A stretch of DNA of 64,000 bases from a virus (IMGVR_UViG_3300025141_008848:32001-96000); one strand, 5' to 3'; numbered from the stretch's first letter, positions 5,593-64,000 are shown. Notes: a model not told the origin generated them from the sequence alone. Translations and numbers: made by a program.

Positions 5593-8500
5593 ATGGCAGA
5601 CGGTAATAAAATATTTGTTTCTCCAGGGGTATATACTTCAGAGAAAGATTTAACATTTGTAGCACAAAGTGTAGGTGTTACTACATTAGGTATAGTTGGA
5701 GAAACCTTAAAGGGTCCAGCTTTTGAACCAATATACATTCAATCATATGATGATTTTACAACTAGGTTTGGTGGGACTTCACCAATGACTTATGTGGATT
5801 CACAAATACCTAAATACGAATTAGGTTATATAGCTAAATCGTATTTAAGTCAATCAAACCAATTATTTGTAACAAGAGTATTGGGGATAAGTGGTTATGA
5901 CGCAGGACCATCATGGAGTGTTGTTACAATAGGAGAATTAGACGGCACTACTTTAACAGGTAGTACATCCGCAACCACCCAACTAACACTACCATTCTTT
6001 ATTCCTTTAACAGGGACAAATGGTACTATTGGGGCTAATTTTTCTGCGAATGATGCTTTACACGATGATTTCTTCAGACAACTTCCTGGAACCATAGCGA
6101 GTCATTTTTACAGTGAACCATATCAAACGGGTGATACAACAGCAGATAATGTGAACACTCCGTTTACAATGAATAATGGTACCACACTACCTAATTTACA
6201 AACATCTTTTATAAATTTCTTTAACGGAGGATACTCCCCAACAACAGTAGCATCAGGGTCAACTTGTTATTCAGGAGGACCAGTTTATTATTCTTCTACT
6301 ACTTTAGCTTCATGGAGTTGTCCACTAGTATACCAATACGGTTGTATACCTGAAGCAGTTGAATCAGCAGCAACAGGTACTACAATTGCAACATTTTCTG
6401 CTGAAACATCAGCACTAACAGTAACTAATGTACTATCCACTGAATGTACTGATTTTTCATCTTACAAAAATGATTCGTGGTATTATGGGTTATTCGATTA
6501 TGTAGATGCGGAATGTTGTACCGGTACAACATTTAGTGGGATATCTTATCAACTATGGTTAAGTGGTGGATGTAATAATGGTGGTGGTCTTAACGCTTGT
6601 ACAGGGGTTACAGGAACAACATCAGCTGGAACTGAAGTATATTCTGGTAATGTTATTGTAGATTTAATTACTTATACTGGTGTTGAACCGTACACCGACT
6701 ATGATGGTATGGTAGTATTAACATTAAGGTCTAGAGGACTTAGTACTAAGGCTTCGGGTGGACCGGTATATGCTTTAACAGCAGACACGGCGAGTTTTGA
6801 TTGTACTGGAGATTATGCTAAAGTATTAACAAATCCATTTGCTTCATTTGGGGTAAGTGCAACCACTACCGGTGGTGATGTATATACATTTAAAACTTCT
6901 ATGGCGAACACTTCACAAGATTATGTGTCAAGAGTGTTTGGTAGAAGTCCATTTGATAAAAAAGAATCTGAGGTTCCTTTATTTGTTGAGGAGACTTACC
7001 CAGCACTTTTAACTGATGGTTGGAAGAAAGGAAAAATTAGAGGGTTACAATGTTGTTTTAAATATTTACCTTCTGCACGAGACATAACTAATACAAATAC
7101 CATTGCGTGGTATATGAGAGAATGGACAACACCAGAAACACCATGGATTGTTTCCGAGTTACAAGGTACGGACATATTCAGATTATTTAAATTCATCTCA
7201 ATATCTGATGGTACAGCAGCAAATAGAGAAATTAAAGTTTCTATAATTAACTTATCATTCGAAAGAGGGGAGTTCGATGTAATCGTAAGAGATTTCTATG
7301 ATACAGACGCAAACCCACAAGTTTTAGAAAAATACACTAGATGTAGCTTAGACCCAACAAAAGTATCCTTTATAGGTAGAAAAATTGGTACTTCTACAGG
7401 GGAATTTGAATTAAAGTCTAAATATACAATGTTATATCTAGGTGAAGGATTGTTGGATGGTGTATTTAAGAATTCATTACCAGCTGGTTTTGAAGGATAT
7501 AGATTTAGAGGGTATGATTGCCCAGTTAATCCACGTATTATTTATAAAACAAAATATTATAAAGCAGGAGAAGTAGTGTATGACCCAGCTTTCGGTAGTG
7601 GTGTAGGTAATAACCAAACTATAAGTGGGGGTGATAAGATAAGTAAAGTTTATCTAGGAGTCTCAAATAGTATAGGAGCTGCTTATGACCCAGATTTCTT
7701 TGAATATAAAGGAAAACAAGTACCTAGTACATTATGTACAGCAGTGGAAGGTGGTGACTGGAATGTAATAACTCCTGGTTTCCACATGGATTCAGGAGCT
7801 ACAGTAGTGTTGGGTGGAACAGGAACTTATTTAGATTGGTCAGGAACTACATTAAATGGTAAACAAGTATTTGATTGTGGTGCCGGACAATTTAATCACG
7901 AACCAACTTTAAGTACTGAACCGTACAAACAACTTAGAAGTCGTAAATTTACAGTTGCTCCACATGGTGGGTTTGATGGTTGGGATATTTACAGAAAAAC
8001 AAGAACAAATTCTGACGATTATAGAATGGGACTAAGCGGATTCTTAGCAGGACAATGTGCTGGAACATCGGAATTCCCACAAGCAACTGGAAAGGGTACC
8101 TTTAAAAAATTAAGTAGTACAGAAGCTAACACAGATTATTTTGCTTATTTAAGAGGTATTAATACATTCAGTAATCCTGAAGCGGTAAATATTAATGTGT
8201 TTACCACACCTGGTATTGATTATGTGGATAATTTAGGTCTAGTAAATGAAACTATTGATATGGTAGAAACTGATAGAGCGGATTCATTATATGTAGTAAC
8301 GACACCAGACTACAATATGTTTGTTTCTAGTACGACAGACCCAGCTAACCAAATAACACCAGAAGAAGCGGTAGATAATATGGAAGACTCACTGATAGAC
8401 TCTAATTATACCGCTACGTATTATCCTTGGGTACAAGTTAGAGATACGGCAAATAACAAACAAATATTTATACCACCAACAGCGGAGGTAATGAGAAATA

Positions 8501-9021
8501 TAGCTTTAACCGATAATATTGCATTCCCATGGTTCGCATCTGCGGGATATACTAGAGGTATTGTGAACGCTATAAAAGCTAGAAAGAAACTTACATTAGA
8601 TGAAAGAGATACTTTATATGTGGGAAGACTTAATCCTATAGCAACATTTAGTGATGTCGGACCAATTATTTGGGGTAATAAAACACTACAAATTAGAGAA
8701 TCAGCACTAGATAGAATAAATGTTAGAAGATTATTATTACAAACTAGAAAGTTAATCTCAGCAGTATCAATTAGACTACTATTTGAACAAAATGATGATG
8801 TAGTAAGACAACAATTCTTAGACTTAGTTAACCCAATTCTAGACTCTATTAGAAGAGATAGAGGTTTAACTGACTTTAGAGTGGTACTTTCTAATGACCC
8901 AGAGGAGATAGATAGAAATGAAATGAATGGTAAAATCTACATAAAACCAACAAGAGCATTAGAATACATATTCGTTGAATTCTTGATAACACCTACTGGT
9001 GCATCTTTTGAGGATGTATAG
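5593..9021 (+). CDS. Contractile tail sheath protein (T4 gp18-like) with large insertions
   Basis: N-terminal 'FVSPGVYTSEKDL', plus 'YTATYYPWV', 'PWFASAGYTRG', 'IWGNKTLQ..SALDRINVRRLL' and C-terminal 'IYIKPTRALEYI'. Confidence 0.95.
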   Translation: MADGNKIFVSPGVYTSEKDLTFVAQSVGVTTLGIVGETLKGPAFEPIYIQSYDDFTTRFGGTSPMTYVDSQIPKYELGYIAKSYLSQSNQLFVTRVLGISGYDAGPSWSVVTIGELDGTTLTGSTSATTQLTLPFFIPLTGTNGTIGANFSANDALHDDFFRQLPGTIASHFYSEPYQTGDTTADNVNTPFTMNNGTTLPNLQTSFINFFNGGYSPTTVASGSTCYSGGPVYYSSTTLASWSCPLVYQYGCIPEAVESAATGTTIATFSAETSALTVTNVLSTECTDFSSYKNDSWYYGLFDYVDAECCTGTTFSGISYQLWLSGGCNNGGGLNACTGVTGTTSAGTEVYSGNVIVDLITYTGVEPYTDYDGMVVLTLRSRGLSTKASGGPVYALTADTASFDCTGDYAKVLTNPFASFGVSATTTGGDVYTFKTSMANTSQDYVSRVFGRSPFDKKESEVPLFVEETYPALLTDGWKKGKIRGLQCCFKYLPSARDITNTNTIAWYMREWTTPETPWIVSELQGTDIFRLFKFISISDGTAANREIKVSIINLSFERGEFDVIVRDFYDTDANPQVLEKYTRCSLDPTKVSFIGRKIGTSTGEFELKSKYTMLYLGEGLLDGVFKNSLPAGFEGYRFRGYDCPVNPRIIYKTKYYKAGEVVYDPAFGSGVGNNQTISGGDKISKVYLGVSNSIGAAYDPDFFEYKGKQVPSTLCTAVEGGDWNVITPGFHMDSGATVVLGGTGTYLDWSGTTLNGKQVFDCGAGQFNHEPTLSTEPYKQLRSRKFTVAPHGGFDGWDIYRKTRTNSDDYRMGLSGFLAGQCAGTSEFPQATGKGTFKKLSSTEANTDYFAYLRGINTFSNPEAVNINVFTTPGIDYVDNLGLVNETIDMVETDRADSLYVVTTPDYNMFVSSTTDPANQITPEEAVDNMEDSLIDSNYTATYYPWVQVRDTANNKQIFIPPTAEVMRNIALTDNIAFPWFASAGYTRGIVNAIKARKKLTLDERDTLYVGRLNPIATFSDVGPIIWGNKTLQIRESALDRINVRRLLLQTRKLISAVSIRLLFEQNDDVVRQQFLDLVNPILDSIRRDRGLTDFRVVLSNDPEEIDRNEMNGKIYIKPTRALEYIFVEFLITPTGASFEDV

Positions 9022-9042
9022 TATTTATAATAAAATTTAATT

Positions 9043-9948: not shown

Positions 9949-9973
9949 TAAAACCAATATAAAAAGGTAAAAA

Positions 9974-10486: not shown

Positions 10487-10492
10487 CTAACA

Positions 10493-12903: not shown

Positions 12904-13392
12904 ATGGCCGACTTATTAATGAAAATGCCGATACCCTACGAACCTAAGAAAAAGAATAGGTTTATAATGAGATTTGATTCATCTCTAGGTATTAACGAAT
13001 GGTATGTAGAAAGTACATCCAGACCCCAAGTTACTATAGGAGCTGTAGAAATACCATTTTTAAATACATCCACATATGTAGCTGGTAGATTTGTGTGGAA
13101 TACAATAAATGTAACGTTTAGAGACCCAATTGGACCATCTGCTTCACAAGCATTAATGGAGTGGGTTAGAGCACACGCAGAATCAGTGACAGGTAGAATG
13201 GGTTACGCGGCAGGATACAAGAAAGATATCGGACTAGAATTACTAGACCCAACTGGAGTTGTTGTGGAAAAATGGATACTTCAAGGATGTTTCTTAACTG
13301 ATGTTAATTTTAATGACTTAGCTTATAGTGATGAAGGTCTTGTAAATATTGCAGCCACATTAAGACCGGATAGGTGTGTATTAGTTTACTAA
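12904..13392 (+). CDS. Tail tube protein (T4 gp19-like)
   Basis: 'YEPKKKNRF', 'YVAGRFVWNTINVTFRD', 'YKKDIGLELLDPTGVVVEKWILQGCF'. TATTTATA at 12855-12862. Confidence 0.9.
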   Translation: MADLLMKMPIPYEPKKKNRFIMRFDSSLGINEWYVESTSRPQVTIGAVEIPFLNTSTYVAGRFVWNTINVTFRDPIGPSASQALMEWVRAHAESVTGRMGYAAGYKKDIGLELLDPTGVVVEKWILQGCFLTDVNFNDLAYSDEGLVNIAATLRPDRCVLVY

Positions 13393-19597: not shown

Positions 19598-20680
19598 ATG
19601 GCAGAAGATTTAAATTATAAAAACCTATTAAATAATTTTATAGATAGTAGTAAATTATATTCTCTAGATGTTAAAACTAGACTGAATAATTTATTCCTAT
19701 ACTCCAGTATGGGAAATGTAGAAGAAATAATGTTTTCTAGAAATTTTTATACTGGTACATTAGGAACAACTTCAGGTAATCTAGTGGGCATACCAAATGA
19801 GGTTATAAGTAGGATAACAACTTATTATACAACTCTTAAACAAAATATAAGTGGGGAAACCACCACAATACAAATAAAACTTAATGAGTGTGCCCCATCA
19901 GAATATGAAAAATTATATATTAAAAATGTACTATACACTACATTAGAACAACAATTAAATGAGGTAATGAGACAAACAATAACGGTAGTTAATAGTTTTA
20001 GAGGCCTACAAGAAAATATCACTAAAACAATAGATAAATTAAATTTTATAACTACTAATAGTTACGATGGACAATATATCGACCCTAATGGTGGTAGAGT
20101 AGTAGCTTTACAACTAACAGGGACCACCGCATTAAATACATTAACCACTAGTTATAATACCAGTAATACCTACTTAAATACCTTTATAACTAATCATATT
20201 AATACAACGTTCCCAAAAAACTATCCCTCGAATGAGGAATATCTTTTCTTTAGTCCACTTATCTATACAAATGATTCACTCATATTTACATTTAATAATA
20301 GAGTACAATTAGAAAAATTATTAAAATATAGAAAAAGTACTCTATATGATGATTTAATAAAAGAAGATAAATCTGGAAAAAATGGGTTATATACTAGTAC
20401 CAAAATCAGATTTCAGGAAAAACTAAATAAAATAATAAGACCATGGATAGATTACGATACTAGTTTATTAGAACCTAGATTCACATCGAAGGTAGATTTA
20501 GGATATGAAACATTAATTGGTAGTTTAAATAATTATTATGTAGATTTTAAAGTGGGGTACAGTATCAATACCGGATATACCGCAGAAAATCTAATTAGAG
20601 TTAATTTACGTGATAAAAACATGGGAATAAGTGACAATAAGTTCAACTATAAAATGGAACAACAATTATACGTTAGTTAA
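19598..20680 (+). CDS. Hypothetical structural protein
   Basis: Long ORF within the baseplate operon. No motif recognised. Confidence 0.5.
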   Translation: MAEDLNYKNLLNNFIDSSKLYSLDVKTRLNNLFLYSSMGNVEEIMFSRNFYTGTLGTTSGNLVGIPNEVISRITTYYTTLKQNISGETTTIQIKLNECAPSEYEKLYIKNVLYTTLEQQLNEVMRQTITVVNSFRGLQENITKTIDKLNFITTNSYDGQYIDPNGGRVVALQLTGTTALNTLTTSYNTSNTYLNTFITNHINTTFPKNYPSNEEYLFFSPLIYTNDSLIFTFNNRVQLEKLLKYRKSTLYDDLIKEDKSGKNGLYTSTKIRFQEKLNKIIRPWIDYDTSLLEPRFTSKVDLGYETLIGSLNNYYVDFKVGYSINTGYTAENLIRVNLRDKNMGISDNKFNYKMEQQLYVS

Positions 20681-50900: not shown

Positions 50901-53900
50901 ATACGGCATCCCACAAGATTATGTATCCTGGTCCCAACTTATTGCAGCTCTGGTAAGTGTAGGTGTTGTGGATTACAGTGGTACCCTGGTAAGTCTAACT
51001 AGTACTTTTGACGAAGTATGTGAAGCAATATGGCTAGCAATTGGGTCGATGCCAGGTTCACTACCAAAGTGTATTACCATTACGATAGACCCATGTGAGT
51101 GTACTCAAAGTACATGTGATTGTGTAGCAGTTAATGGACCAGGAGGACAATTCACTAATCTTGGAGATTGTCAATCACTTCTAAATAACGTACCTTGTTG
51201 TGGTACCTGGTATTGTCCAGGACAAACTAACTGTACCTGCGTATTCCAACCTAATATATTAACTGGGTTTGCCACCCAAATAGATTGTTATAACGCTGTT
51301 AATTGTTGTGAAATACAAGAACCAGAATATGCCTGTATAGTAACAGCTCCATCTCCATCATTCGGAATACCTGATGTGTGTGACTGCATACAAACACCAG
51401 GAGGACCTTATACCGGACCAAACGCACTACTTGATTGTCAAACTGACCCAAATACTTGTTGTTCAGGTACTACAATGCCAGACTACTGGAAATGTGAATT
51501 ACAACCTGGGGGTAACTGTCTGTGTGTACTAGACCCCTCACCAACGATTAATTCTTTTACTAGTCTATTTGATTGTCAATCAACACCAGTCTCCAATTGT
51601 TGTTGGACAGGAGTAAGCTACACACATTATTGGGAGTGTATAGATTTCGGAGGTACCATAGGGTGTGAGTGTGTACAAACATCAACAGGTGCATGGCCTA
51701 CATCTGGAGACTGTGAAGCTCAACAAAGTCTATGTTGTTACAGTGGGGTTACAAAATGGGATTGTAAAGACCCGGGGAATGGTAATTGTACGTGCGTACA
51801 ATCAATATTTGGATTCTATACCAGTTTATATAATTGTGAACATAGTATACCTGCAGTAGTCCCACACCCAAACTGTTGTGAAAAAATTTATGGAAATTGT
51901 AAAACATGTGATGGAGCACAGCTAATCCATACAACAGGTAAACATTACGGTCCCCTAGGTGGGCTAGGTATAGCTTCTACAAATGGTGTAACCCTAGCAC
52001 CAATTGTGGATAGGGGTTTATGGGTTACAGGAACGAATAACTACGTATACTTAGATGTGGTAGAAGACCCATTGGATGGTTGTTGTTACGCACTTATTCA
52101 AACGACAAATCATAGTGGGGTTAATATGTTAGGGCCAGGAAGCCCACTTCTAACCTACTCACCAAGTATTGTGTATAATAACCACATTAACGGTTATTTT
52201 GCTGATGGTTCATATAATTCAGCTCCAGGTCCATGTGCAACAATACAACAAGTTTTTTGTCCATGGTGGCCTTGTGACCCTAGTTGTGTAGGAACAGTAA
52301 AAGGGTATGATTGTGATAATTGTCCCGGAACGTGTGTTTGTAACCCTAATAATACCGCAGGTGCTACGTTCCAAGGTCCAGGAGCATTAGCAGCGTGTCA
52401 AGCAGTTTGTATACAAGGGTGTGATGATTGTGCAGTTAGTTTAGCTGGTTATCTCACCGGACCAGTACAGTATGAGGGTGTATGGAGTGCTACTTTTAAT
52501 CCTCCATGGCATGTGTATGATATTAATGATTGTGTGGTAGACCCTGCAGACAACTGTTGTTATTGTTGTGTTGAAGACCCTACCGTTCTCAATCCGTGTA
52601 CACCAAACACACCACCACAACTATGTAAAGTGGCTGGGGAGGTATGGCATCCATTCCCAATATGTAAGTGTATGAAGCCAAATATACAACAATCCAAATC
52701 GAAAGCTAATCCGTGCATACCACAACCTTGTGCTCCTAATGAAACTTGGTTCGGAAACCCAATATGTGATTGTGTCCCGAACGGTCCTGGTGGTTCAGGT
52801 CCTGGTGGTTCAGGAAATATTAACGGATGTGCCGCCAAACATCAACCATCACTCAATCTTGGTGTGAGTGTTGGTGGTGTTGGGTCTATACCAGTAACAT
52901 GGGCAGATTGTAAACAAGATATAAATGGAGACCCATGTGGTCCTGGTGGCTCGAATCCAATTTGCAAGGACTGTGGTCCTGGTGCGATTACCTTCGATTA
53001 CTATGACCACAATACCAGTACCTGGCAGACGGCTAATATCACTGCCACACCCACCCTCCCAATTCCAGTATGGACACCAGGCACTTACACACCTACCGGT
53101 CAACAGGGTAACGTTGTTATGCATAACGGGTGTTGTTTTGTTGTTTGTAACACACACTCAACACCGACAACATATCTCAACCTATCTCCGACAGATGATT
53201 ATATGGAATACTTATGGTGTATGTCACAACACCCTGGAGGAAATCCACTTGATTGGCCAACACTAATGTCTGCCTTTGGTCAAAATCCTATGGCACAAGT
53301 TGTATATTTCCCATGTGATAAAGATTGTGTACCAAGTGTCCCTATAAGAAACAAGAGATATGATTGTAAACGACAAGCAACGTTGGGGAACCCAAATAAT
53401 ATGGGATGCGTACCAAACCCAAATGGAGTTTATGTAGATTTACCAACATGTCAAATTAACTGTAACCAACAGGAAGAATGTAAACAATGTTGTCAAAATA
53501 CTAATTGGGAACCAGGATTATCTGATGCAATGTCAATGACGAGCTCGTATACACTCCTACAATCAAACGCAAATCCGTGTGATTGTGAATTTTGGTTAGG
53601 TGTTGGTTGGGTTCCAGTACCACTTTCAAAATGTAAGGTACGAGATGGTTGTGTACAAGTTAAGGTATGTGACTCACCTTATGTGTGGGCAGGACAACCG
53701 ATATGTGATTGTGTTCTCCCAAACGATATCCCACACGAGGACTGGGCCCATGATGATGGTTGTGTACAAGATAAGGAATGTGAGAATGGTTGGACCTGGT
53801 CATGGAAATTATGTGACTGTGTTATTGAAACCAGAGAAAGATGTATGGAAAGAGAATGTGCAGCAGGAAAATTTTGGGATAAGGAAGTATGTAATTGTGT

Positions 53901-53922
53901 ACCACATAAAAAAATACCCTAA
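44947..53922 (+). CDS. Giant (2991 aa) cysteine-rich multi-repeat protein, putative fibre/adhesin
   Basis: PKD-like N-domain ('YTINWGD..HTY'), then about 2500 aa with roughly 10% Cys by eye, CBM5/12-like W-x-Y-xx-GD-x-V modules, 6-Cys tandem repeats and C-terminal C-x(4-6)-W-x(4-5)-C-x-C repeats. Confidence 0.7.
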   Translation: MEVYKYRIKRTNPSIYWTVPCTGGTDFWPINLSTNCSGITMFNSTFSQVRDALEGDMNNFPQELTGCSIANPCVILNDTVVLPMFPSPDPFCIDSSSHPYILFTGLNLIQMGVQTFTGESYNDMISVFDLTNSTLSQPLNTQTSANLMPNSNSCFCQNPLGTNLNQIPILLDQDFNDIGHYDIWDGNIGQKDIFSNFVVTATTTAGNKIKIFNSTDFGYYKTFQDSPYTINWGDCNCNCPVPPCVNSFGDPCCETLQFPNLTNPVDHTYGGVGSRKITITHESPWGPTSVSQMITVPFMNYNALLATGNIPSFVSPVIGPNGPVGTNSYFGAYPSTPLDSGTDIMQYSGMSPIFAGGNNNDCFDVTGNTESLLGAFQNYTTSSTAGLPPGYQQGITVPLMGQVLNPITNTLVQGVSGKITQVNAQYTAYTISIGTNTPITFYDFSNGVTLYEAVSCGLDAFAFAAFDCVKCELGDCTYCETKDEYIDRITFLPESITFNAQHGEWLPTTNYVVGDIVFDSTWGECCCYMAVKDITQSATTLSPWAGVKPTDTFQGVWWYNGQPTEHIWEACTPECESCPDYTAIPCYDPTNWLNAYPTFGPPGPAGVYSNGNNYTAGTFTVSQFGNCYRALQTGTLPPPTGLTNNAYWDYIGCSSWICPPVSALTAGTVACELVPGTGSTSTGPCTTIGYTSYNDCFDDFLNGECCEDRYICTDQYSCQGCTGITSAHPLYNDPSGLDPLQGPVFDSELDCNAWCNPPAFSCTTQIASSNNCCVSLSCAEDNLNGTPGYYSSVVLPVIAAAGTNPAPFSNMIDYIASNYALWFVSPLTTPNPYDINDCNLGVVGIATACCDYTIWVYNCEDGCIPAFAGAGWPTPGDCWAANPQWAGYGTTPCGWICDPVCEPCVEVYQLGVGYPYTPQGLLDCEMNCSCVTDCYICDCTATTTGVNINCDLYHDPITGLAGCPHWPPNEGIPVNPGDPLTYLYQTNCLSACTCEGGIDCFISSIDGTQMGGCSSYPSLWHMAQQNATWSLGSPTDAAGNPTGYTTVEECCLATECCWAVCEEDPAVYDPGYFGITPSVNPALQGGGGGTYPCWWYSQSVPDVYSDFGGGQPSNCCSPLYINNAGANTGLAGCIQDHPNHPYCDMIDCINSLCPQPAPSNEMMCCVPPENSCICACDTWIAQNGSILVPSWEGPWNVGIYLEGDTVSYGDGNTPDCCWICTCPYDPLSQVFGSGVFDCSSSPPDDGPYSNGQPNCWQTCERLPATFPSPPSNIVGDPCGPCSGHVPPVTYSCSTAGCLASTCVFNPGGMNPSIWATQMNCYDNPMCDTPAYPGYDQCRADCYCADPNPLAEVTSCTVLQDYLNDIYSPGALGGVNGWIAGTGWYSTWPMTYPPVQPGLIFNTSGSFWWQYSSFDDCVLGVNAGVDCCDTSGFTYACDDTCNCPTVNGNPCVGGTGCYVVTSGPPGPFTSMGQCQAWCTWECDPTGPQICIFNALSIAATTYPSALACSVANTNCECVNGTVEYWCDWAGADAGYYNTLGAVPCVDSVYMSSQVPAYQAMAIGQGATGPADPANNYHDAVVLGNNPTGQGFPTIQQCQEKCRFCCDCAPPGSGICDLCGDPAVTICSWGDQFCSAGTACQYGSSYLSPYDCQQNTTPYPCAAPITEYCCHAVDGCLSYMGAYVAGTNPVTSDGVGCVSFHTIAGCDGECNFVCGDCTPTGGQCDCTFVNTLTPNCLAPYPFTTMADCQFYLSTAVNLLYDAGSCCRCYDCFLNSPITYSAYDVGSSTWITMSTPIPTFTTSALAWVAGTQYNTGDVVSELFDGDDCCYVCVWGANETGGITTNWTWNPSFYYTAYVNDVGLGNPVWPGGGTGSLAWIPCDAGCVNVQIITYNCIPGAIFDSCEYDTNGNLMNLIVPTTVFLSQNDVVRRLADPLGTPNLQSTNIFTIKFPYGGWPVGYPANPCLYNGFPLAIAGGFLSIDSDMAMQYGIPQDYVSWSQLIAALVSVGVVDYSGTLVSLTSTFDEVCEAIWLAIGSMPGSLPKCITITIDPCECTQSTCDCVAVNGPGGQFTNLGDCQSLLNNVPCCGTWYCPGQTNCTCVFQPNILTGFATQIDCYNAVNCCEIQEPEYACIVTAPSPSFGIPDVCDCIQTPGGPYTGPNALLDCQTDPNTCCSGTTMPDYWKCELQPGGNCLCVLDPSPTINSFTSLFDCQSTPVSNCCWTGVSYTHYWECIDFGGTIGCECVQTSTGAWPTSGDCEAQQSLCCYSGVTKWDCKDPGNGNCTCVQSIFGFYTSLYNCEHSIPAVVPHPNCCEKIYGNCKTCDGAQLIHTTGKHYGPLGGLGIASTNGVTLAPIVDRGLWVTGTNNYVYLDVVEDPLDGCCYALIQTTNHSGVNMLGPGSPLLTYSPSIVYNNHINGYFADGSYNSAPGPCATIQQVFCPWWPCDPSCVGTVKGYDCDNCPGTCVCNPNNTAGATFQGPGALAACQAVCIQGCDDCAVSLAGYLTGPVQYEGVWSATFNPPWHVYDINDCVVDPADNCCYCCVEDPTVLNPCTPNTPPQLCKVAGEVWHPFPICKCMKPNIQQSKSKANPCIPQPCAPNETWFGNPICDCVPNGPGGSGPGGSGNINGCAAKHQPSLNLGVSVGGVGSIPVTWADCKQDINGDPCGPGGSNPICKDCGPGAITFDYYDHNTSTWQTANITATPTLPIPVWTPGTYTPTGQQGNVVMHNGCCFVVCNTHSTPTTYLNLSPTDDYMEYLWCMSQHPGGNPLDWPTLMSAFGQNPMAQVVYFPCDKDCVPSVPIRNKRYDCKRQATLGNPNNMGCVPNPNGVYVDLPTCQINCNQQEECKQCCQNTNWEPGLSDAMSMTSSYTLLQSNANPCDCEFWLGVGWVPVPLSKCKVRDGCVQVKVCDSPYVWAGQPICDCVLPNDIPHEDWAHDDGCVQDKECENGWTWSWKLCDCVIETRERCMERECAAGKFWDKEVCNCVPHKKIP
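51094..51879 (+). repeat. Six tandem Cys-rich protein repeats (6-Cys pattern)
   Basis: Consensus [W/Y]xC-x(5-14)-CxC[V/I]-x(~8)-[F/Y/W]-x(5-8)-C-x(5-12)-CC, e.g. WKCELQPGGNCLCVLDPSPTINSFTSLFDCQSTPVSNCC. Confidence 0.8.
52783..52814 (+). repeat. 15-bp tandem duplication (GPGGS x2 linker)
   Basis: GGTCCTGGTGGTTCA repeated twice. Confidence 0.85.
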
Positions 53923-55755: not shown

Positions 55756-58700
55756 ATGGCTAGTAATAGATTTAGATACCCACCGGCCCCTAATCACGGA
55801 GGGGATACATTTAGTGACTATCTTGTAGGTAACCAATTTATGGGTAGCCAACAAATGACACTGGGTAATTTCTATAGTATGCCACCCTACGGTAAACCAA
55901 ACTCACCAGAATATAATGTAGGTACATTCTCCACCCCAATAACCCTAGAATCACTAAATATAGAAAATTTAGCTCTAGCACAACAATTATCTAGTAATAA
56001 TCTTGAGGTGTTTGTCAATAACAATATAAGTGATATTTCTAGTTTTGTTTTATATGGGTCATTAAAGAAAAGATTATCTATTGCGGTCCAAAATATAGTT
56101 AATTTTTTTCCAGGAGCTTTATTTGTTGATGGGATAGATACTAATTACTTACCAGGTAATACTACAGCATATGATATATTATATAACTTAGCGACAGAAG
56201 AAACGACATTTAAAACTAATGTTAATATCTTATCTAACCCATTTAGTATAGAATTTACTACCAACGGAAATCAGATGAATGAAAATATTAGTCCAGAACA
56301 AATATTGAATAATTTTGAAATGTTTGGGATTTCTGCAAATACTTTGATAAATATAGCAGATGGAACCACGTCCTCATTAAGAAACCTAACTAAAGAATTT
56401 AAAAAATACTCATTAAGTTTTAGTGGGAAAGTGGGTGAAAAAGAATATAGGATAACCAACCTAGAACCACAAAACACAAATAATAATTATCTAGTTTTTA
56501 CTGTTAAAGGGAACCCGTTTAATGTATCAACACTAGCTGGTGCATCCCCAACACTAACAACCAATACATTTTATATTAAACCCACCCAACAACAAACAGA
56601 AGAAGAATTTAAAAAATTCCAGAGTATAGAAGCATTTTTGGTTAATAGAGGAGTTTCACCCATATACACGGCTACATTTAATACCATTAAAGAAACCACT
56701 GAAGGTGTTAAATATTATGATAAAATAAAAAAGACATGGCCACTAGAGGATAATGTCAATATAGATACCACAACTGAAAATTATACTAACTACCTAATAT
56801 CATTATCTGAGTTAGGTGAAGAGTTAGACCAAGAAAAAACAAATTTAATTTCTAGATTTTTAACTTCACCTATATTAAAAGAATTTGATGGTACTAACCA
56901 AAAAATAGAAAAAACATTACAGATATATGGGAGAAGTTTTGATGACATCAAAACTTTTGTAGATGGAATATCTTATATGACTAATGTGAGTTATGATGGT
57001 GAAAATAATATACCTAATGAACTCATCAAGAATTTTGCACAAACTTTAGGATGGTCTACACCAAGTACACTAAACAACACTACCTTCTTAGACAGTGTCT
57101 TAGGTGTAAACACACCACAGTATTCCGGAACAAGTGTATCCAAAACACCTGCAGAACTGGACATAGAATTATATAGAAGAATATTACTCAATACAGGATA
57201 CCTATTTAAATCTAAAGGAACAAGAAAATCTATAGAATTTTTATTAGGACTTTTAGGTGCACCTGAAGCACTAGTTGAGTTTAATGAGTATGTTGTATTA
57301 GCAGATGCACCAATTAAATTAGACTCAGGGGTTAAATTTGTTTGGGCCTCTCAACCAAACGCAGTTACAGAACCTTCCTACGAAAAGGTAGAAAGTAAAT
57401 TTACAAACCAATGGCAAAAAATATCCGGAGGGTCATATACCACTACTACTATAAATTATAGCATACCATTTGGGCAATACTACTATTCTACCGGAACAAC
57501 ACAAAACCCATTTACACTCGTAGATTATCCTATTGATAGTCAGGGATATCCAACAACTCCTCGAATCACTAATAACTATTTTTTCCAGAGAGGAGCAGGA
57601 TGGTTTGAAATGACGGATAAACATAAGTCGGAATTAGTAATTAACATTAGTGCATCCACCCTTACAGGATGTACCCCAAACATAGTAAATAAATTTAGTG
57701 AATTTACATGGGGTGGTTTTTGGACACTCGGACAGTATTCTAATTCAGTAAAATGTCCTTATTTAGATAGGTTTAGAAGGTTTCCACATATGTCATTTGG
57801 TTTTGGATTAACCAGAATGATAGACGATAAAAAATCTTGGGTTCTAAAGGAAGGTACCCAGTATAGGGATTACTCCTTTAATAATAGAGACGCGTACTAC
57901 CAAACACAAAATGAAAAGTTAGTTCTAAATGTTAAAAATGTTGAATTAGGATTAAATATTGGGCAAGGACTAACATATGATGTGTGGAAACAATCAGCCC
58001 AATCAGACTGTTTTTTTAGTGGGGGAACATTACCTTATCCATATCCTACCACAGGAGGAAGGTGGGACTCCACAAACCCAAAAATTAACGCAAAAACTAC
58101 CGACTTTAAAACGTTTAAAGACCATTTTTGGAAAGTGTTTATTGATGCCAAAAATCGAATGACCATAAATGATGGTAAAACAGGGGGATATCCTACCTTA
58201 CAAAAAATATATCTAGACTATCTCTATAAAAGTTGTGGGGAAAATAATAAGTACACATATAATAAAATGATTGAGTATGCACAATCGATGGGAGACTATT
58301 GGATAAAGATTATCGAACAAATGGTTCCAGCCACTACATTATGGACAAGTGGAGTTAAAATACAAAACTCTGCTTTTCATAGAGATAAGTTTGTATACCA
58401 ATGTTTTAATGTTACAGGGACAAGTCTATCTACAGTATTAAGTTCTACACTTTTAGTATCCAGTACAGGATTTACTGGGTTTCCCGCACCACAATTTATG
58501 AGTGCCCCACCATCATTAAGAATAGCAGCACCCCCACAGTCAGGTACAACGTTCTATAATAATTTATTAAGTGGGGCTCTTGTAATTCCACGTTCCACTT
58601 ACGCAAATTCTTATAATATAGATAACCAAGGAAAGACATTTGGTGGTGCCTTAACGAGTAAAGAAACCAATAAACTCGCTAATAAGTTTCATAGTAATAA

Positions 58701-58923
58701 AAAAGAATATATAGATAAATCCGTATTTACAAAAAAAGGTAGTACTAGTAATTTATTATGTATACATGGTATGAAGGAGCTACGTGGTGGAGATACAACA
58801 TGGTTAGAAAGTTATCGATTAACCCCTAGACCAAGTACACAAAGAGGCGGAATTGAGGGTGGTACCACTATAAATACTAGTAGTCAAGTGAACCACTCTG
58901 GGAGAATGGGTGGTAGTTATTAA
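55756..58923 (+). CDS. Baseplate wedge protein (gp7/P2 gpI-like domain)
   Basis: 'NIPNELIKNFAQTLGW' and 'LYRRILLNTGYLFKSKGTRKSIEFLLGLLG' resemble the gp7/tail-I 'KGT' motif. Confidence 0.6.
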   Translation: MASNRFRYPPAPNHGGDTFSDYLVGNQFMGSQQMTLGNFYSMPPYGKPNSPEYNVGTFSTPITLESLNIENLALAQQLSSNNLEVFVNNNISDISSFVLYGSLKKRLSIAVQNIVNFFPGALFVDGIDTNYLPGNTTAYDILYNLATEETTFKTNVNILSNPFSIEFTTNGNQMNENISPEQILNNFEMFGISANTLINIADGTTSSLRNLTKEFKKYSLSFSGKVGEKEYRITNLEPQNTNNNYLVFTVKGNPFNVSTLAGASPTLTTNTFYIKPTQQQTEEEFKKFQSIEAFLVNRGVSPIYTATFNTIKETTEGVKYYDKIKKTWPLEDNVNIDTTTENYTNYLISLSELGEELDQEKTNLISRFLTSPILKEFDGTNQKIEKTLQIYGRSFDDIKTFVDGISYMTNVSYDGENNIPNELIKNFAQTLGWSTPSTLNNTTFLDSVLGVNTPQYSGTSVSKTPAELDIELYRRILLNTGYLFKSKGTRKSIEFLLGLLGAPEALVEFNEYVVLADAPIKLDSGVKFVWASQPNAVTEPSYEKVESKFTNQWQKISGGSYTTTTINYSIPFGQYYYSTGTTQNPFTLVDYPIDSQGYPTTPRITNNYFFQRGAGWFEMTDKHKSELVINISASTLTGCTPNIVNKFSEFTWGGFWTLGQYSNSVKCPYLDRFRRFPHMSFGFGLTRMIDDKKSWVLKEGTQYRDYSFNNRDAYYQTQNEKLVLNVKNVELGLNIGQGLTYDVWKQSAQSDCFFSGGTLPYPYPTTGGRWDSTNPKINAKTTDFKTFKDHFWKVFIDAKNRMTINDGKTGGYPTLQKIYLDYLYKSCGENNKYTYNKMIEYAQSMGDYWIKIIEQMVPATTLWTSGVKIQNSAFHRDKFVYQCFNVTGTSLSTVLSSTLLVSSTGFTGFPAPQFMSAPPSLRIAAPPQSGTTFYNNLLSGALVIPRSTYANSYNIDNQGKTFGGALTSKETNKLANKFHSNKKEYIDKSVFTKKGSTSNLLCIHGMKELRGGDTTWLESYRLTPRPSTQRGGIEGGTTINTSSQVNHSGRMGGSY

Positions 58924-58928
58924 AAGTT

Positions 58929-61900
58929 ATGGCAAATAAATCATATAAAACAAATATAGACTTAAGAATATTAGGGGAAAGAATAAAATTTTTATTTTTT
59001 GTTTCTAATACAGTGGGTAATACCACAAGTCACTCATACAATAAGAAAAAATGTATGGTTATAGAGTATGATACTCAGATTATGGTAGAAGCTATTTGTT
59101 TGGTTACCGAGATTGGTGAAAGAATGTTTTTAAGATTTAGGGGTGATAATTTAAAAATAGAAAATACTTTAAATCTATTTGGGTTAAGAAAGTCGGATAT
59201 GTTTTTAGAAGTTTTTAAAAATAGTAAAGGTGTGTATGGGTTTGAAAGTATTAGAGGTAATGGTGTAGGAGCATTTTTATCACACCCTAATTATTTTTCT
59301 ACTACTATACCTAAAAATAATTCTAGAGGGGTCGGTGCTTTATTACCATTTGAAAATGGGGTAATGGGAAAAAATCACTCATTACAAATGGTATTACCCG
59401 GTGCAAATATAACTAAAAATATATCAGCTGGTATTTCTTTTGATATGGATATACATATAGAATCAGGGGGTCAATACATACAGTCATTAGGGTTTAAATT
59501 ATATAAGGAAAACATAATAATAATAGAGGGAGAAACACTAGACGTAAAAAATACAAAACAAATTATCAATACAACCCCTAATATTTCCTTAGAGACTACC
59601 TATATACCCTTAACTAGTAATGATTTAGCGTCTCGTAAAGTGATGTATGATTATAAAAAAGTACTTACACCACAAAATGTAGACGCCGACTCAATCACTT
59701 TAATAGAAAGTAATGTCTATACCATCCAAAACCCAAAGAACCTTAATACTAATTTAGATAAGTTAAAGTTAACAAAAAATAATATAATAGAAATTCCTTA
59801 TAATATTTCACGTGTTGTTGAAGATGGTAAGATAAAAACAACTAAAAAAGTTATAAAAAATGGTAAAGAAATTTATCCTTTAGGGTGGATAAATGAATTA
59901 AGAGATAATGAGATAGTGTCGAGTGCTAATAAATGTATTTCTCTTAAATTTAATAATAGAGAACAATTAATTGCTTTTAGTGAAAAACTAAAACAACAAC
60001 AAATAGGTAATATAGAAACTTACCCACTAATGAATACTAGTGCAGAGGGAACCAACACAGTTAGAGGCATGAAAAAAACCTACAGTAAGATATCTCAATG
60101 GATAGAAAGAAGTACCCTAGATGAATATAATGATGTTAAATTTAGTTATGACTCCGATAATTATATTAAAAGTATTTTAATCTGCCCCAGAAAGAAAACT
60201 AAAGTAGATAATACAAATAAAGGAAAACAGAATGGTCTATACAGTGATGGAACCCAATACACCAGATTAAATGGTGAAGCATATAAAGGGTATTTCCACA
60301 TAGACTCTAACCTAGGACCAGTTACCGGAAAAGATAGTGGTGAACCTAGAAGACAAGTACTAATTGGGTTATATAATTATGCACCCATTAGTGCAAATAC
60401 ATCTACAGATTTTTATTTAAGTACTGTAGGTAAGAAAAATAGTGGTTTATATTCAGCATTTACAGCAACGACTACCGATATATATGAAGCTGATAATACT
60501 TATGATTTACATATAAGTGCTTCTTCTTTTTCTGCACATTCCGCAAGTACCGGAACCACAACAATACCAATAAGTAATATAGATAGAGAAGTTGTATTAC
60601 CTATGATTGGTGATATAAATAAACAATACAAACCATATGCCTTTGGTGAAGTTTACGCTAGTAACCCTAATGGGTCACTAGGGTTAAATAACGATAACCC
60701 ACAACACTATATGACTTATAGGGTTAAAAGTAACGGTATATATAGATTCACATACAAAGCCTTTTTAAATGTTACATATACGGATACAAAATGGTGTGAT
60801 TATGTAAGTAGATTAGCACCTAGTGGTGTTACCGCCACAACTGGAATTTACCCCCAAAATGACTATGAGATAAAAAGATTAATAAATACTTCTATTATAC
60901 AAGGAGGTGTGGAAGAAACTGCTACTACTTTACAAGATACTAAGTTTAAATTAAATACGGGTCCTAGATATATAAAATTAGCGGACAGGAAAGAAACCGA
61001 CCCACCTGAGAGTGGTTTATTAACATTTAATTTTACCACCTCATTGTTGAAATATAGGGTAGGTACTGGTACAACTGATAGTATTATATCCGGTACACCA
61101 ACCACATTACAAACAGTTAAAGTATTAAGGTCAACAGAGGATGGTGATGCCAACCACTATTTAACTTTGGACGTGAATGAAAATGATAAATTTTCTAACA
61201 CGTACAATACATGTATTACTGATGGTGTCTCGGCGACCACTATTTTTAAAAGACAAATTCCTATTGTAATTGATACTGGACTTATTAGTTTATTGGAAGG
61301 TGAGGTCATAGAATTAGCTTATGATACAAATTGGGTATCCACATCCAAAGGAAATTATTTTGGTGGAGGAGGAACTACAAATGTGGATATTAATCTCGGA
61401 CATAAACTAGATAAACATGGTAATACTATAGAATCCCCATGGTATAGAGGGATAAAATTATCTAGTGCCGTAGTTAATAAAAATTTATTCTTCGACCAAA
61501 GTAAAAAGTCCAAAGAATTCCAAATGAATACTTCTGGTAATAAACAAAAAATAAGGTTAGATGGTACATTATACTTATCAGACCAGAAATGTGGAAATAT
61601 CCTAAGACCACATATAAACGAAGAATGTTTTGGACAACAGATTTTCTGGGATAGTACAGGAGTGGACGGTAAATTAGTTTGGAATGAAACATCCACCAAA
61701 CCAACTAATAAGTGGCAAAAGCTAATAGAAAGTAATATAATAAAAGATTATCAGATAACTACTAGTCCACATAATAAATTAACGGAGATGGAGAAAGACG
61801 GCGTATTCTCCTTTCACATACCAACTTACGATAGTGATTATGGGGTAAAATGTAATTTTAATTTCCCACAAACAACCCAATCCTATATAATAGTTAATAA

Positions 61901-62705
61901 ATTTAAAAATTATTTTGGGTCGGACTTTAGACATTATATAGTTTTAACACCAGAATGTAATTTTTACAAACCATGTTCAGAAACTAAACTTTTATCCTGT
62001 TATGATATTTTACATAGAACTAGACCAGATAAATGGAAAATACAAAATGTAGGCAATAAAATAACGATAAATGGTAAGGAAATAATGATTATATCGGATA
62101 GGTCAGACGCCAATTCAAAACCAACAACCCTTCCCAACCAAACCATATGCAAGTATTTTTGTGACTGTGGACAAAGTATTGCTGAAGATTTAGAGATAGA
62201 CCCAATATACGGTATTACAGATGTATTTACTGATATTAATGGAAAAGATTGTAACGAATGTGTTAAAAATTCTAGAGCTCATTGTGCAAAAATACATGCG
62301 GCATGTAAACCGATAATCATAGAAGATTGTTCAGAACTAAAAGATTATGCGTTAAGTAATGAGGGGGATGAAGAGAGTATTCCTATTAAGATGAAAGGTA
62401 TGGTTGATGTTGGTGTTGGTGGTGGAGATAGTGATGGCCCTGGAGACCCTAGAGGAGGTTCTACATACTTTTCATGTATAGAAGGGGTATGTCAAGAAGA
62501 TGATGACGGAATATACACATCATTTAGTAGTTGTCAGGAGAGTTGTGAACCAACGGGACCACCAACTCCCCCGCTAGGACCCGATGATGGTGATGACCGA
62601 GGAGGTGATGAATCATACGAAGAAGGTGATGAAGAGATTTGTAAGGAAGGGACCTACTGGTGTGAGAGTAGAAAAGCGTGTATACCACTAAATGAAAAAT
62701 GTTAA
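58929..62705 (+). CDS. Large composite hypothetical structural protein with Cys-rich C-terminal modules
   Basis: Contains a 'GLYSDG.Y...G..YKGYFH' module, S/T-rich runs, and C-terminal 'YFSCIEGVCQEDDDGIYTSFSSCQESC' and 'CKEGTYWCESRKACIP'. Confidence 0.5.
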   Translation: MANKSYKTNIDLRILGERIKFLFFVSNTVGNTTSHSYNKKKCMVIEYDTQIMVEAICLVTEIGERMFLRFRGDNLKIENTLNLFGLRKSDMFLEVFKNSKGVYGFESIRGNGVGAFLSHPNYFSTTIPKNNSRGVGALLPFENGVMGKNHSLQMVLPGANITKNISAGISFDMDIHIESGGQYIQSLGFKLYKENIIIIEGETLDVKNTKQIINTTPNISLETTYIPLTSNDLASRKVMYDYKKVLTPQNVDADSITLIESNVYTIQNPKNLNTNLDKLKLTKNNIIEIPYNISRVVEDGKIKTTKKVIKNGKEIYPLGWINELRDNEIVSSANKCISLKFNNREQLIAFSEKLKQQQIGNIETYPLMNTSAEGTNTVRGMKKTYSKISQWIERSTLDEYNDVKFSYDSDNYIKSILICPRKKTKVDNTNKGKQNGLYSDGTQYTRLNGEAYKGYFHIDSNLGPVTGKDSGEPRRQVLIGLYNYAPISANTSTDFYLSTVGKKNSGLYSAFTATTTDIYEADNTYDLHISASSFSAHSASTGTTTIPISNIDREVVLPMIGDINKQYKPYAFGEVYASNPNGSLGLNNDNPQHYMTYRVKSNGIYRFTYKAFLNVTYTDTKWCDYVSRLAPSGVTATTGIYPQNDYEIKRLINTSIIQGGVEETATTLQDTKFKLNTGPRYIKLADRKETDPPESGLLTFNFTTSLLKYRVGTGTTDSIISGTPTTLQTVKVLRSTEDGDANHYLTLDVNENDKFSNTYNTCITDGVSATTIFKRQIPIVIDTGLISLLEGEVIELAYDTNWVSTSKGNYFGGGGTTNVDINLGHKLDKHGNTIESPWYRGIKLSSAVVNKNLFFDQSKKSKEFQMNTSGNKQKIRLDGTLYLSDQKCGNILRPHINEECFGQQIFWDSTGVDGKLVWNETSTKPTNKWQKLIESNIIKDYQITTSPHNKLTEMEKDGVFSFHIPTYDSDYGVKCNFNFPQTTQSYIIVNKFKNYFGSDFRHYIVLTPECNFYKPCSETKLLSCYDILHRTRPDKWKIQNVGNKITINGKEIMIISDRSDANSKPTTLPNQTICKYFCDCGQSIAEDLEIDPIYGITDVFTDINGKDCNECVKNSRAHCAKIHAACKPIIIEDCSELKDYALSNEGDEESIPIKMKGMVDVGVGGGDSDGPGDPRGGSTYFSCIEGVCQEDDDGIYTSFSSCQESCEPTGPPTPPLGPDDGDDRGGDESYEEGDEEICKEGTYWCESRKACIPLNEKC

Positions 62706-62719
62706 AAAATAAATAATAT

Positions 62720-64000
62720 ATGGCAATATTCGACGGAGATATAAAACTGATTGGTTATGTATTAACAAATGCTTTAAGTGGTAGTTGTGATGGGGGTATA
62801 ATAGGTTCCCAAATTTCAGCAACTACGAGCACTACATCCCCCTATTTAGTTAGTTGGTCAGGGACCAACCTAGGATATACCGCGTGTACTTTTGATATAT
62901 TTAATTTATGTCCCGATACCTATGTTGCAACCGTAACGGATGCCACAGGTGCAACCGGTACCACTAGTATTGTTGTAAGTGCTTTTACAGTACCAACCTT
63001 AACAGGAAGGCTTAGCAAAAATGACTGTATTCTAGACCCCAATAAATTGTGTGATATAACAATTTCATCAGCTGTAGTTGACACCCCAACGTACAAGTAC
63101 GAATTGAGAAAAGATAATAAGTTAATAGATACCCATTATGGTAATAGTGCTGATACTAGTCATCTTTTTAGTGACCTAGAGAATGGGATGTATACTGTGA
63201 CGTTGATTGAGAATGAGATAATTAGTTATACACAGGAACAATCTTGTAGTGGGTGCACCGCATATATGTTTAATGATGAGGGAAATTATGAAATCAGTGG
63301 TGAACCATACGGATGGGAGTTAGACAAAGTGATAGGTACTAACTGGGAAAACTTCATACCAGATGCCCCATTTCACCTTGACTTTTATGGTGGAGTTTCG
63401 GGATTGACTGGGTGGGGTCCCGCAACGGGAGGAACCAACATATACTATGAAGCTGGAATATTAGAAGATGGGACTATAGATTCTTCTAATCCGTATGTGT
63501 GGTTTTATACGGGAGCTACTCATACTAGAATGTCTGACACAGGTCAAGATTGGTATTTAGGTGTTAGTGCACTAACTAAAGAAGAAGGACAAAATTGGAT
63601 AGGTCCGGACATTGCAAAAACTACACCCAACATAGGTAAATTTTACTATAATAGTGTCATTAATAAATTTGAATATTTGTACCCTAGTTATTCTAATTTG
63701 GTTAGTTGGGTAACTTATGACCCTAGAATAAATTATGGTATACCAGGAAATCCTAGAGCTGCAACCTTAACTGGTGGAACCTCAGGACTCACACTTATGG
63801 ATTTATCACCGATAGATGTTACAATAAATGCATCAAATGTGGTTATCGAGGCTAGTAGTATTTGCTGGTTGGCGGGTCCGGGAAATCTTGGAAAATTATT
63901 TTCACATTCAAATAATGGACTAATAACGGGAATGTTAAGTAAGTGTTCATATAACAACTATACTTGGCAAACTAGTTTTAATGCAACTTCTGATAATGAT
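62720..64000 (+). CDS. Truncated large structural/adhesin protein with SprB-like repeat (not in the ORF track)
   Basis: Open from ATG 62720 to the window end: MAIFDGDIKLIGYVLTNALSGSCDGGI...PYLVSWSG...FNLCPDTYVATVTDATG, resembling Bacteroidota SprB repeats. Confidence 0.7.
   Translation, partial: MAIFDGDIKLIGYVLTNALSGSCDGGIIGSQISATTSTTSPYLVSWSGTNLGYTACTFDIFNLCPDTYVATVTDATGATGTTSIVVSAFTVPTLTGRLSKNDCILDPNKLCDITISSAVVDTPTYKYELRKDNKLIDTHYGNSADTSHLFSDLENGMYTVTLIENEIISYTQEQSCSGCTAYMFNDEGNYEISGEPYGWELDKVIGTNWENFIPDAPFHLDFYGGVSGLTGWGPATGGTNIYYEAGILEDGTIDSSNPYVWFYTGATHTRMSDTGQDWYLGVSALTKEEGQNWIGPDIAKTTPNIGKFYYNSVINKFEYLYPSYSNLVSWVTYDPRINYGIPGNPRAATLTGGTSGLTLMDLSPIDVTINASNVVIEASSICWLAGPGNLGKLFSHSNNGLITGMLSKCSYNNYTWQTSFNATSDND

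Follow-up and report, generated by a model that had tools for sequence, protein, structure and literature searches.

Enrichment of an [ST]-[GA]-x-T motif in sheath and fibre proteins of a jumbo-phage contig points to a candidate sequon for phage-encoded virion O-glycosylation

Why should the tail sheath, distal tail proteins and giant fibre proteins of one uncultured marine giant phage accumulate the same four-residue motif, while the replication enzymes encoded among them hold hardly any of it? This question is raised by a stretch of 64,000 nucleotides (hereafter the window), bases 32001-96000 of the single 128,462-bp virus contig IMGVR_UViG_3300025141_008848, whose own numbering is used for all genome coordinates given below. 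An original prediction, made from the letters of the window, had proposed that a motif [S/T]-[G/A]-x-[T/S] saturates the virion proteins and serves as a sequon for a phage-encoded O-glycosylation that coats the virion. Here, we found a strong and sharply defined motif excess that is restricted to particular virion proteins, and a large block of sugar enzymes on the same contig. Our favoured reading, which we hold to be probable but by a modest degree of confidence, is that the motif acts as a sequon through which phage enzymes O-glycosylate exposed virion surfaces in the cytoplasm.

Expected counts were obtained from shuffled proteins, with whole-protein, 40-amino-acid (aa) block and 20-aa block shuffles. 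Every listed instance of the motif is present in the gene to which it had been assigned. Across the contig, [ST]-[GA]-x-T occurs 132 times versus 52.6 expected (z-score (z) 10.9), whereas Ser at position +3 is only marginally over-represented (63 versus 48, z 2.2). The predicted motif thus stands with Thr at this position but hardly with Ser, which makes [ST]-[GA]-x-T the better notation. When one position is varied at a time, position 0 takes S (z 9.6) and T (z 6.0) only, and position 1 takes A (z 8.3) and G (z 7.4) only. The seven window proteins named in the original prediction, pooled, contain 87 matches to [ST][GA]x[TS] versus 32-35 expected (z 9-12), an excess that survives the global, 40-aa and 20-aa block shuffles; the remaining 30 window proteins contain 24 versus 27 expected. 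Protein by protein the distribution is bimodal, most proteins having 0-1 matches, close to expectation. Sites lie at a median spacing of 34 residues and show no long-range periodicity, only short chaining at a spacing of 3-4, and the tandem form [ST][GA]xT[GA]xT is found 10 times versus 0.4 expected. The motif also differs, as had been proposed, from the Bacteroidota sequon D-[ST]-[AILMTV], which is not enriched (38 versus 40.2 in carriers, 85 versus 83.5 elsewhere); neither is N-x-[ST], including the cytoplasmic N-glycosyltransferase (NGT) type, in carriers (127 versus 138.5).

Is this excess a product of chance or composition, i.e. of low-complexity stretches rich in S, T and G, of wrong open reading frames (ORFs) or of a post hoc choice of proteins? 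Indeed, the carriers are S/T/G-rich (27% S+T in the sheath insert), the enriched set was partly picked after the counts had been seen, and collagen-like repeats in a megaphage discussed below inflate related patterns. However, a large excess remains in shuffles that keep the S/T/G content, including its local composition (z 9-10 with 20- and 40-residue blocks), and six patterns made by permuting these residue classes stay flat (z <=3.4), which rules out local S/T/G richness as the cause. A scan of all 8000 a-b-x-c patterns, which uses each of the 108 contig ORFs so that no protein is picked after the fact, places SAxT first (37 versus 9.3, z 9.1), TGxT third and SGxT fourth, and the excess is repeated in at least nine further genomes. 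We thus give an artefact hardly any credence. A DNA-level word was likewise rejected: codon use at motif positions matches the background, with Ser drawn from both AGY and TCN codons, and the signal therefore acts at the protein level.

Matches to PHROG and Pfam families indicate that the window codes for a contractile tail with an interleaved replication block. About ten proteins carry the excess, namely the sheath through its insert, distal tail proteins and fibre proteins (Table 1), and the signal extends past the window. The gene starting at 62720, with the densest sites in the window, continues to genome position 98298 (window 66298) and in full holds 24 sites versus 7.1 expected (z 6.8); the gene of the short fibre with a Peptidase_S74 chaperone domain ends at window position 26. 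Orthologues of the 603-aa protein are enriched too (5 versus 0.5 in the relative G012, 3 versus 0.6 in G014), as are counterparts of the 2991-aa protein (28 versus 7.1 in G001, 24 versus 6.1 in G002). On the other side, the tube, the hub-like, gp25-like, gp6-like and tape-measure-like proteins and the proteins at 14513 (0 versus 1.2) and 16530 (0 versus 1.6) hold together 6 versus 8.2. The proposed saturation of virion proteins is thus borne out for the sheath insert, the fibres and the distal tail but fails for the tube, hub, baseplate core and tape-measure-like protein. Helicases, ribonucleotide reductase (RNR), the RecA-like protein and the exonuclease contain 0-2 matches to [ST][GA]x[TS] each, in line with the rarity noted by eye. 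Replication and repair enzymes even fall below expectation (1 versus 4.3 here, P ~0.07; 8 versus 17.6 in orthologues from five relatives, a non-independent set), a weak hint that they may avoid modification by a cytoplasmic enzyme.

Related viral contigs rated complete by CheckV measure 294-326 kb; the contig therefore amounts to roughly 40% of a ~300-kb jumbo-phage genome, with the head genes off the contig. In the head module of two relatives, terminase, protease and scaffold hold no site and the portal 0-1, whereas the major capsid protein holds 4 versus ~1 and an adjoining protein of 497 or 678 aa is enriched. The motif thus marks a subset of virion proteins that likely face outward, and the coat on the virion, as originally envisaged, would reduce to this subset.

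The placement of sites is best followed in the sheath, whose insert (approximately residues 106-850) separates a conserved N- and C-terminal core; the PHROG tail sheath and Pfam Phage_sheath_1/1C matches cover residues 848-1139 only. In T4 gp18, inserts of this kind form the outer surface of the sheath. The sheath contains 16 [ST][GA]xT sites versus 3.7 expected, 14 of which fall within residues 106-450 (2.8 expected from local composition) and none within residues 1-105 or 851-1142, a confinement to the insert that indirectly favours solvent-exposed acceptors. The best cultured match is the sheath of Microcystis phage Mel-JY01 (35%), relatives being otherwise uncultured, and homologues were found in 74 viral contigs at 49-96% identity. 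Nearly all full-length homologues keep the excess, typically 13-22 sites versus 3.4-5.2, and yet the individual sites turn over: in an alignment of 31 sheaths, 83 columns have the motif in at least one sequence but only 5 have it in at least 60% of the sequences, and the variable columns contribute on average 10.8 sites per sheath versus 3.8 expected for the whole protein. Within conserved columns, S and T swap, A and G swap (A17/G13, A21/G9), any residue may stand at x and T hardly varies. Over 1110 aligned residues, the G003 and G013 sheaths share 70.5% identity but carry 14 and 1 sites, respectively, G013 having D, N, V, P or I at key residues of the G003 sites; therefore the fold does not need the motif. 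Sequence comparison thus indicates that the kept property is site density on particular proteins, switchable protein by protein. Indeed, one subclade (L071, L285, L299-L306, G012-G016) has motif-poor sheaths (1-4 sites versus ~2.5 expected), and the fibre-module proteins of these phages stay rich (32 versus 7.0 and 9 versus 1.4 in G012, 9 versus 0.6 in G014).

Could the motif nevertheless be a structural element of lineage-specific beta-rich decoration or fibre domains, a turn followed by a strand start (hydrophobic - S/T - small - x - T), with the glycosyltransferases (GTs) of the contig serving DNA hypermodification or host surface glycans? Position -1 prefers hydrophobic residues or Cys (86 versus 51). 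An AlphaFold2 (AF2) model of the sheath, built with 31 homologues, is poor (mean predicted local distance difference test (pLDDT) 45; insert 60-85); in it, sites lie mostly in loops just before strands, those at 122, 269/273, 310, 344 and 396 directly preceding predicted strands, with two further sites in strands and two in a helix. The five position-conserved columns, a megaphage protein in which the motif sits inside a longer repeated unit W-S-G-G-T-F, and a slight excess in four control phages pooled (147 versus 127) would fit a structural role as well. However, an all-against-all BLAST of 15 large proteins found no similarity among carriers, bar one N-terminal match between two fibre proteins, which also rules out a shared repeated domain as the cause. 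The beta-rich virion proteins at 16530 and 14513 do without the motif, and so, in terms of any excess, do the tail and fibre proteins of T4, phi92, Mel-JY01 and LR756508. A tight Gly-dependent turn would forbid the observed exchange of G and A at one column, and most sites vary in position. What speaks most strongly against a purely structural origin is the contrast between the G003 and G013 sheaths. We consequently regard a structural element as unlikely, though as the most serious competitor of a glycosylation sequon.

Table 1. Features of the contig that bear on the motif, with motif matches given as observed versus expected
Feature	Coordinates	Strand	Motif matches	Remarks
Tail sheath with very large insert	window 5593-9021	+	[ST][GA]x[TS] 19 vs 6.4, z 5.6	1142 aa
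360-aa protein, family not matched	window 19598-20680	+	3 vs 0.7, z 2.6	baseplate/tail module; weak
603-aa distal baseplate or fibre-module protein	window 42177-43988	+	5 vs 1.5, z 2.9	moderate
2991-aa Cys-rich giant tail or fibre protein	window 44947-53922	+	24 vs 11.0, z 4.2	family not matched
1055-aa fibre-module protein	window 55756-58923	+	11 vs 4.3, z 3.4	no family match
1258-aa fibre-module protein	window 58929-62705	+	12 vs 3.7, z 4.5	
1192-aa fibre-module protein, 5' part	window 62720-64000	+	13 vs 2.9, z 6.1	count for window part
Carrier beyond window	genome 98350-100764		14 vs 4.1	
1049-aa Cys-rich carrier outside window	genome 24626-27775		14 vs 3.4	
349-aa short fibre	genome 30977-32026	-	11 vs 1.7	Peptidase_S74 chaperone domain, residues 163-216
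GT4-like enzyme (phrog_7162)	genome 20598-21836	-		412 aa; conserved
Glyco_tranf_2_5 enzyme	genome 18459-19556	-		conserved
Sugar block	genome 379-21836	-		~20 kb
Sugar block: nucleotide-sugar enzymes				two epimerase/dehydratases, UDP-glucose dehydrogenase, DegT aminotransferase, NAD-synthase-like amidotransferase
Sugar block: methyl-transfer enzymes				methyltransferases; epimerase fused to sugar C-methyltransferase
Sugar block: transferases				three GT11, GT17-like, RmlD-GT2 fusion, two further GT2-type, Glyco_tranf_2_5, phrog_7162
Sugar block: DUF5672 protein				
Second DegT aminotransferase	genome 109888			
Tube	window 12904-13392			
Hub-like protein	window 13558			
Tape-measure-like protein	window 20993-27352			2119 aa; M23 peptidase-like stretch at end
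gp25-like baseplate protein	window 36087			
gp6/J-like baseplate protein	window 36557			
Very large proteins in a row	window 38512-64000 and further			without family match
1221-aa baseplate-module protein	window 38512-42177			
260-aa fibre-module protein	genome 100764-101546 (window 68764-69546)			Pfam Dockerin_1, E 1.3e-7
Replication block				gp32-like single-stranded DNA-binding protein, UvsX-like recombinase, FKBP, 5'-3' exonuclease, DnaB-like helicase, class II RNR
FKBP-type peptidyl-prolyl isomerase	window 30409-30843			Pfam E 2.6e-18
DnaJ homologue	genome 125076-126089			
DruA-matching protein	genome 126378-127553			391 aa; Pfam E 7e-24

If the motif were indeed a glycosylation sequon, which enzymes could serve it? 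The original prediction looked to a glycosyltransferase cluster elsewhere in the genome, and such a cluster was found: the sugar block of Table 1 starts ~10 kb upstream of the window, and the contig codes for at least nine GTs. Not one of 27 block proteins has a membrane-like segment by hydropathy (19-residue window, Kyte-Doolittle mean >=1.6), and polyprenyl-phosphate transferase, flippase, polymerase and oligosaccharyltransferase families were not matched in Pfam on this contig, a part of the genome. Judged by these two negatives, the block is probably not a lipid-linked surface polysaccharide pathway and would look like a cytoplasmic one that acts directly on a soluble acceptor, protein or DNA. 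As for DNA, thymidylate-synthase-like hydroxymethylase and TET/JBP families were unmatched among the proteins of the contig, i.e. of ~40% of the genome. The most conserved members of the block are the GT4-like enzyme (75% identity in G002, 64% in G005, 60% in G006, 51% in G003) and the Glyco_tranf_2_5 enzyme (48-55% in relatives), with a dUTPase-like gene, called from the G003 orthologue, between the two; the rest of the cluster is mostly without detectable counterpart in relatives. The cluster of G003 contains instead a GDP-mannose dehydratase, FkbM methyltransferases, Fringe-like, GT8 and GT25 proteins and a PF11397 GlcNAc-transferase. Close to it (140-200 kb, L086-L088), two sulfotransferases, an APS kinase and a DUF285 repeat protein are encoded, which suggests sulfated glycans in that phage.

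The AF2 model of the GT4-like enzyme (pLDDT 90.3, predicted template modelling score 0.88) shows a GT-B fold of two Rossmann domains, and its top Foldseek matches are GlgM, MshA, PglA, BshA and PimA (E 2e-15 to 3e-11, template modelling score 0.55-0.63, 11-14% identity). By sequence, it matched no solved structure (best E 0.92), NCBIfam gave a weak C-terminal GT match, and a protein atlas places it in virus-only GT1/GT4-like clusters that bear no functional name. The model thus confirms a nucleotide-sugar transferase, whose fold does not reveal the type of acceptor; as a reader of the motif, this enzyme is a candidate on the grounds of its conservation and its co-occurrence with the motif.

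Do motif and enzyme occur together in other viruses? The enzyme is present in all syntenic relatives examined, and these share the excess: 139/56 (observed/expected) in G002, 123/45 in G001, 153/47 in G005, 220/112 in the complete 304-kb G003 and 364/148 in the 298-kb G006, where the 8000-pattern scan yields z 15 for SGxT and z 12.5 for SAxT. The family comprises at least 583 viral contigs, and within 10 kb on each side of the best 80 GT loci we counted 1748 sites versus 593 expected, usually in a divergently transcribed protein of 550-1400 aa in the position of the 1049-aa carrier. Among GenBank phages, a homologue (33%) occurs in the 735-kb uncultured megaphage LR756501, which shares 13 proteins with the contig (BLAST E <=1e-5), none of them a motif carrier. 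Its non-repetitive large proteins are nevertheless rich in sites (19 versus 1.8, 13 versus 1.3, 16 versus 2.6 and 26 versus 5.7), likewise with a hydrophobic residue at -1, and its relatives G009 and G010 hold 147 versus 42 and 69 versus 21. The PHROG-assigned collagen-like tail-fibre proteins of LR756501 (L127-L163) show extreme G-T-x-G, S-G-x-S and T-S-x-T repeats (GTxG 1909 versus 252), which raise the motif counts of this phage, observed as well as expected.

Controls gave 41 versus 38 in T4 (99 kb, structural and other genes), 20 versus 14 in the structural module of Mel-JY01, 53 versus 46 in the whole genome of phi92 and 33 versus 30 in 143 kb around the sheath of LR756508. The homologue is absent from Mel-JY01 (190 kb), and LR756508 is not among the 138 records matching the GT. 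Observed/expected ratios were 1.4-3.5 in nine records of the GT lineages and 1.1-1.4 in the four controls; the ranges meet at ~1.4 with LR756501, whose expectation is inflated by the collagen-like repeats, and Mel-JY01. Three further comparisons were discarded. The phi92-like phages, with 25% paralogues of the enzyme, could not be used as support and phi92 was counted as a control. L175, L176 and L178, motif-free around the GT, are not natural knock-outs, as the whole G006 genome is strongly enriched. Neither are the phages with motif-poor sheaths (L071 and its subclade), whose fibres are motif-rich; the GT was seen in one of five of their fragments, which are 15-27% complete.

Could a different selection on exposed Ser and Thr produce the same picture? 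Phosphate, acyl or ADP-ribose groups or a cross-link may be attached there, or an unmodified Thr-rich surface may bind host polysaccharide, ice or particles or resist proteases. The restriction to outward-facing proteins and the selection for density instead of position fit any model of a surface property, the T-G-x-T-G-x-T chaining would build Thr ladders, and many carriers are Cys-rich. Yet kinase, acyltransferase, ADP-ribosyltransferase and lanthipeptide-type enzymes were unmatched on the contig, where GTs abound, and one GT co-occurs with the motif in two lineages. Furthermore, a Thr-rich surface needs no fixed spacing between S/T and G/A, and [ST]x[ST] by itself shows no excess (227 versus 232). 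We hence consider selection of this other kind improbable, more so than a structural element.

For the preferred glycosylation sequon, we propose the following course of events. Soluble phage enzymes would make unusual nucleotide sugars, and a conserved initiating glycosyltransferase, for which the GT4-like enzyme is the best candidate and the Glyco_tranf_2_5 enzyme the second, would recognise the motif on virion proteins, either freshly synthesised or already folded, and load a presumed acceptor hydroxyl. Variable further transferases would then extend the glycan, and the outcome would be a sugar coat on the outward parts of the particle, i.e. the sheath insert, fibres and distal baseplate proteins, and on the capsid surface in relatives.

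Several points weigh against this proposal. That the motif is modified at all, and that glycans are attached to virion proteins, is what we infer. The nearest structures of the GT4-like enzyme act on small molecules, lipids or glycans, and no feature identifies it as acting on proteins. Clusters of GTs in phages may also target DNA or the envelope of the host, and with only ~40% of the genome covered by the contig, a DNA-modification pathway may lie elsewhere in it. The preference at -1 and the sites before beta-strands in the weak sheath model would also fit a structural motif, and motif-poor sheaths do occur in phages with motif-rich fibres. The depletion in enzymes is weak and its orthologues are non-independent, and the enriched protein set in some tests was chosen with the counts in view. 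The nine GT-bearing records represent two lineages of maybe shared deep ancestry, hence about two independent events against four controls. As the lack of excess in phi92 indicates, remote homologues of the GT can occur without the motif, and a relative devoid of both GT and motif was not found among the genomes searched. The wider proposal, that a widespread aquatic jumbo phage clade and a megaphage lineage use an undescribed O-glycosylation sequon with a virus-specific GT4-like reader in the cytoplasm and rapidly changing extension transferases, each phage bearing its own complex glycan coat on sheath, fibres and capsid and sites being gained and lost protein by protein as a surface trait in fast evolution, we regard as evenly poised.

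How would such a system relate to known ones? Bacteroidota O-glycosylation works outside the cytoplasm on lipid-linked glycans. Its sequon D-(S/T)-(A/I/L/V/M/T) is likewise short, position-specific and spread over many unrelated proteins, but it is unenriched in the carriers, and no membrane component was seen in the block. In BclA of Bacillus, collagen-like (G-x-T)n regions carry O-glycans on Thr. G-x-T and its tandem chaining recur here, and the megaphage that shares the GT has enriched collagen-like tail fibres; however, the window proteins have no collagen Pfam match, Ala is accepted for Gly and most sites are isolated. Chlorovirus PBCV-1, as described in parts of PMC7019647, codes for most of its glycosylation machinery, which is cytoplasmic, with transferases that have no signal peptides and acceptor sites outside the cellular sequon. 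In the present phage, the virus likewise supplies soluble enzymes, and its candidate motif matches no known cellular sequon. The glycans of that eukaryotic virus are N-linked to Asn of major capsid and penton proteins, whereas here the candidate acceptor is Ser/Thr, mainly on phage tail sheath and fibres, and attachment is presumed. In mycobacteriophages (Freeman et al. 2023, as cited in PMC12619734), glycans that a GT adds to the C-terminal ends of capsid and tail tube subunits are described as a shield. There, a phage-encoded GT acts on the phage's own structural proteins, as proposed here; judging from that citation, the sites differ, being C-terminal extensions of capsid and tail tube there and sheath inserts and fibres here, with a tube free of sites, and the sugar cluster here is far larger. 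Neither the motif nor glycosylated sheath or fibres in such phages are reported in the literature searched.

The closest described group may be the 'moraphages', metagenome-derived aquatic phages of >200 kb with DnaJ/DnaK homologues, four core GT groups, no RNA polymerase and predicted Bacteroidota hosts (PMC12619734); the passages of that source on these phages leave the role of the GTs open and do not mention an acceptor motif. Compared by described traits only, the contig resembles them in its DnaJ and GTs, in a sigma factor without a match to an RNA polymerase family, and in the size of its complete relatives. By analogy, a Bacteroidota host is plausible for this phage.

Further features of the contig deserve description. 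With an FKBP-type isomerase within the replication/recombination block and a DnaJ homologue, the phage codes for its own folding helpers. The 391-aa protein with a match to Pfam DruA (Druantia defence protein A) is also a weak BLAST match to the large terminase of Mel-JY01 and, instead of serving defence, may have a nuclease or terminase-like domain. Among tripeptide patterns, CDC (12 versus 1.9), CxCV (13 versus 2.0) and those containing CC show some of the largest excesses on the contig. The two Cys-rich giants of Table 1 may contain disulfide-rich modules of an extracellular type in a phage that is assembled in the cytoplasm: units of ~45 residues (CC-x-SG-x-T...W-x-C) repeat near residues 2170-2270 of the 2991-aa protein, and nine prolines follow one another in the 1049-aa protein. 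In the 1221-aa baseplate-module protein, three strongly hydrophobic segments of 19 residues lie in succession (residues 511-567) and peak at a Kyte-Doolittle mean of 3.16, which is unusual in tail proteins; orthologues of this protein are much longer (1754-1824 aa). The Dockerin_1 match of the 260-aa fibre-module protein corresponds to an EF-hand-like calcium-binding stretch, and an N-terminal motif R-L-T/S-x-x-G-R...G-D-S-D-I-D-Y is common to the proteins at genome 98350, 100764 and 101599.

Self-glycosylation of virions by viral enzymes is already established for chloroviruses, giant viruses and a few mycobacteriophages. If the reading favoured here is true, widespread large aquatic phages would possess a novel form of viral self-glycosylation, whose acceptor motif is likewise novel and has predictive value. 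A defined sequon would let sugar-coated phage surfaces be predicted from sequence, including those of metagenomic phages that cannot be grown, and it would give a function to the core GTs of large aquatic phages, which the relevant passages of PMC12619734 leave open. The cytoplasmic pair of enzyme and tag may be of use in glycoengineering. We anticipate that, with sheath and fibres coated in glycans, host recognition would be affected, as would the stickiness and protease resistance of the particles and their losses to marine grazing.

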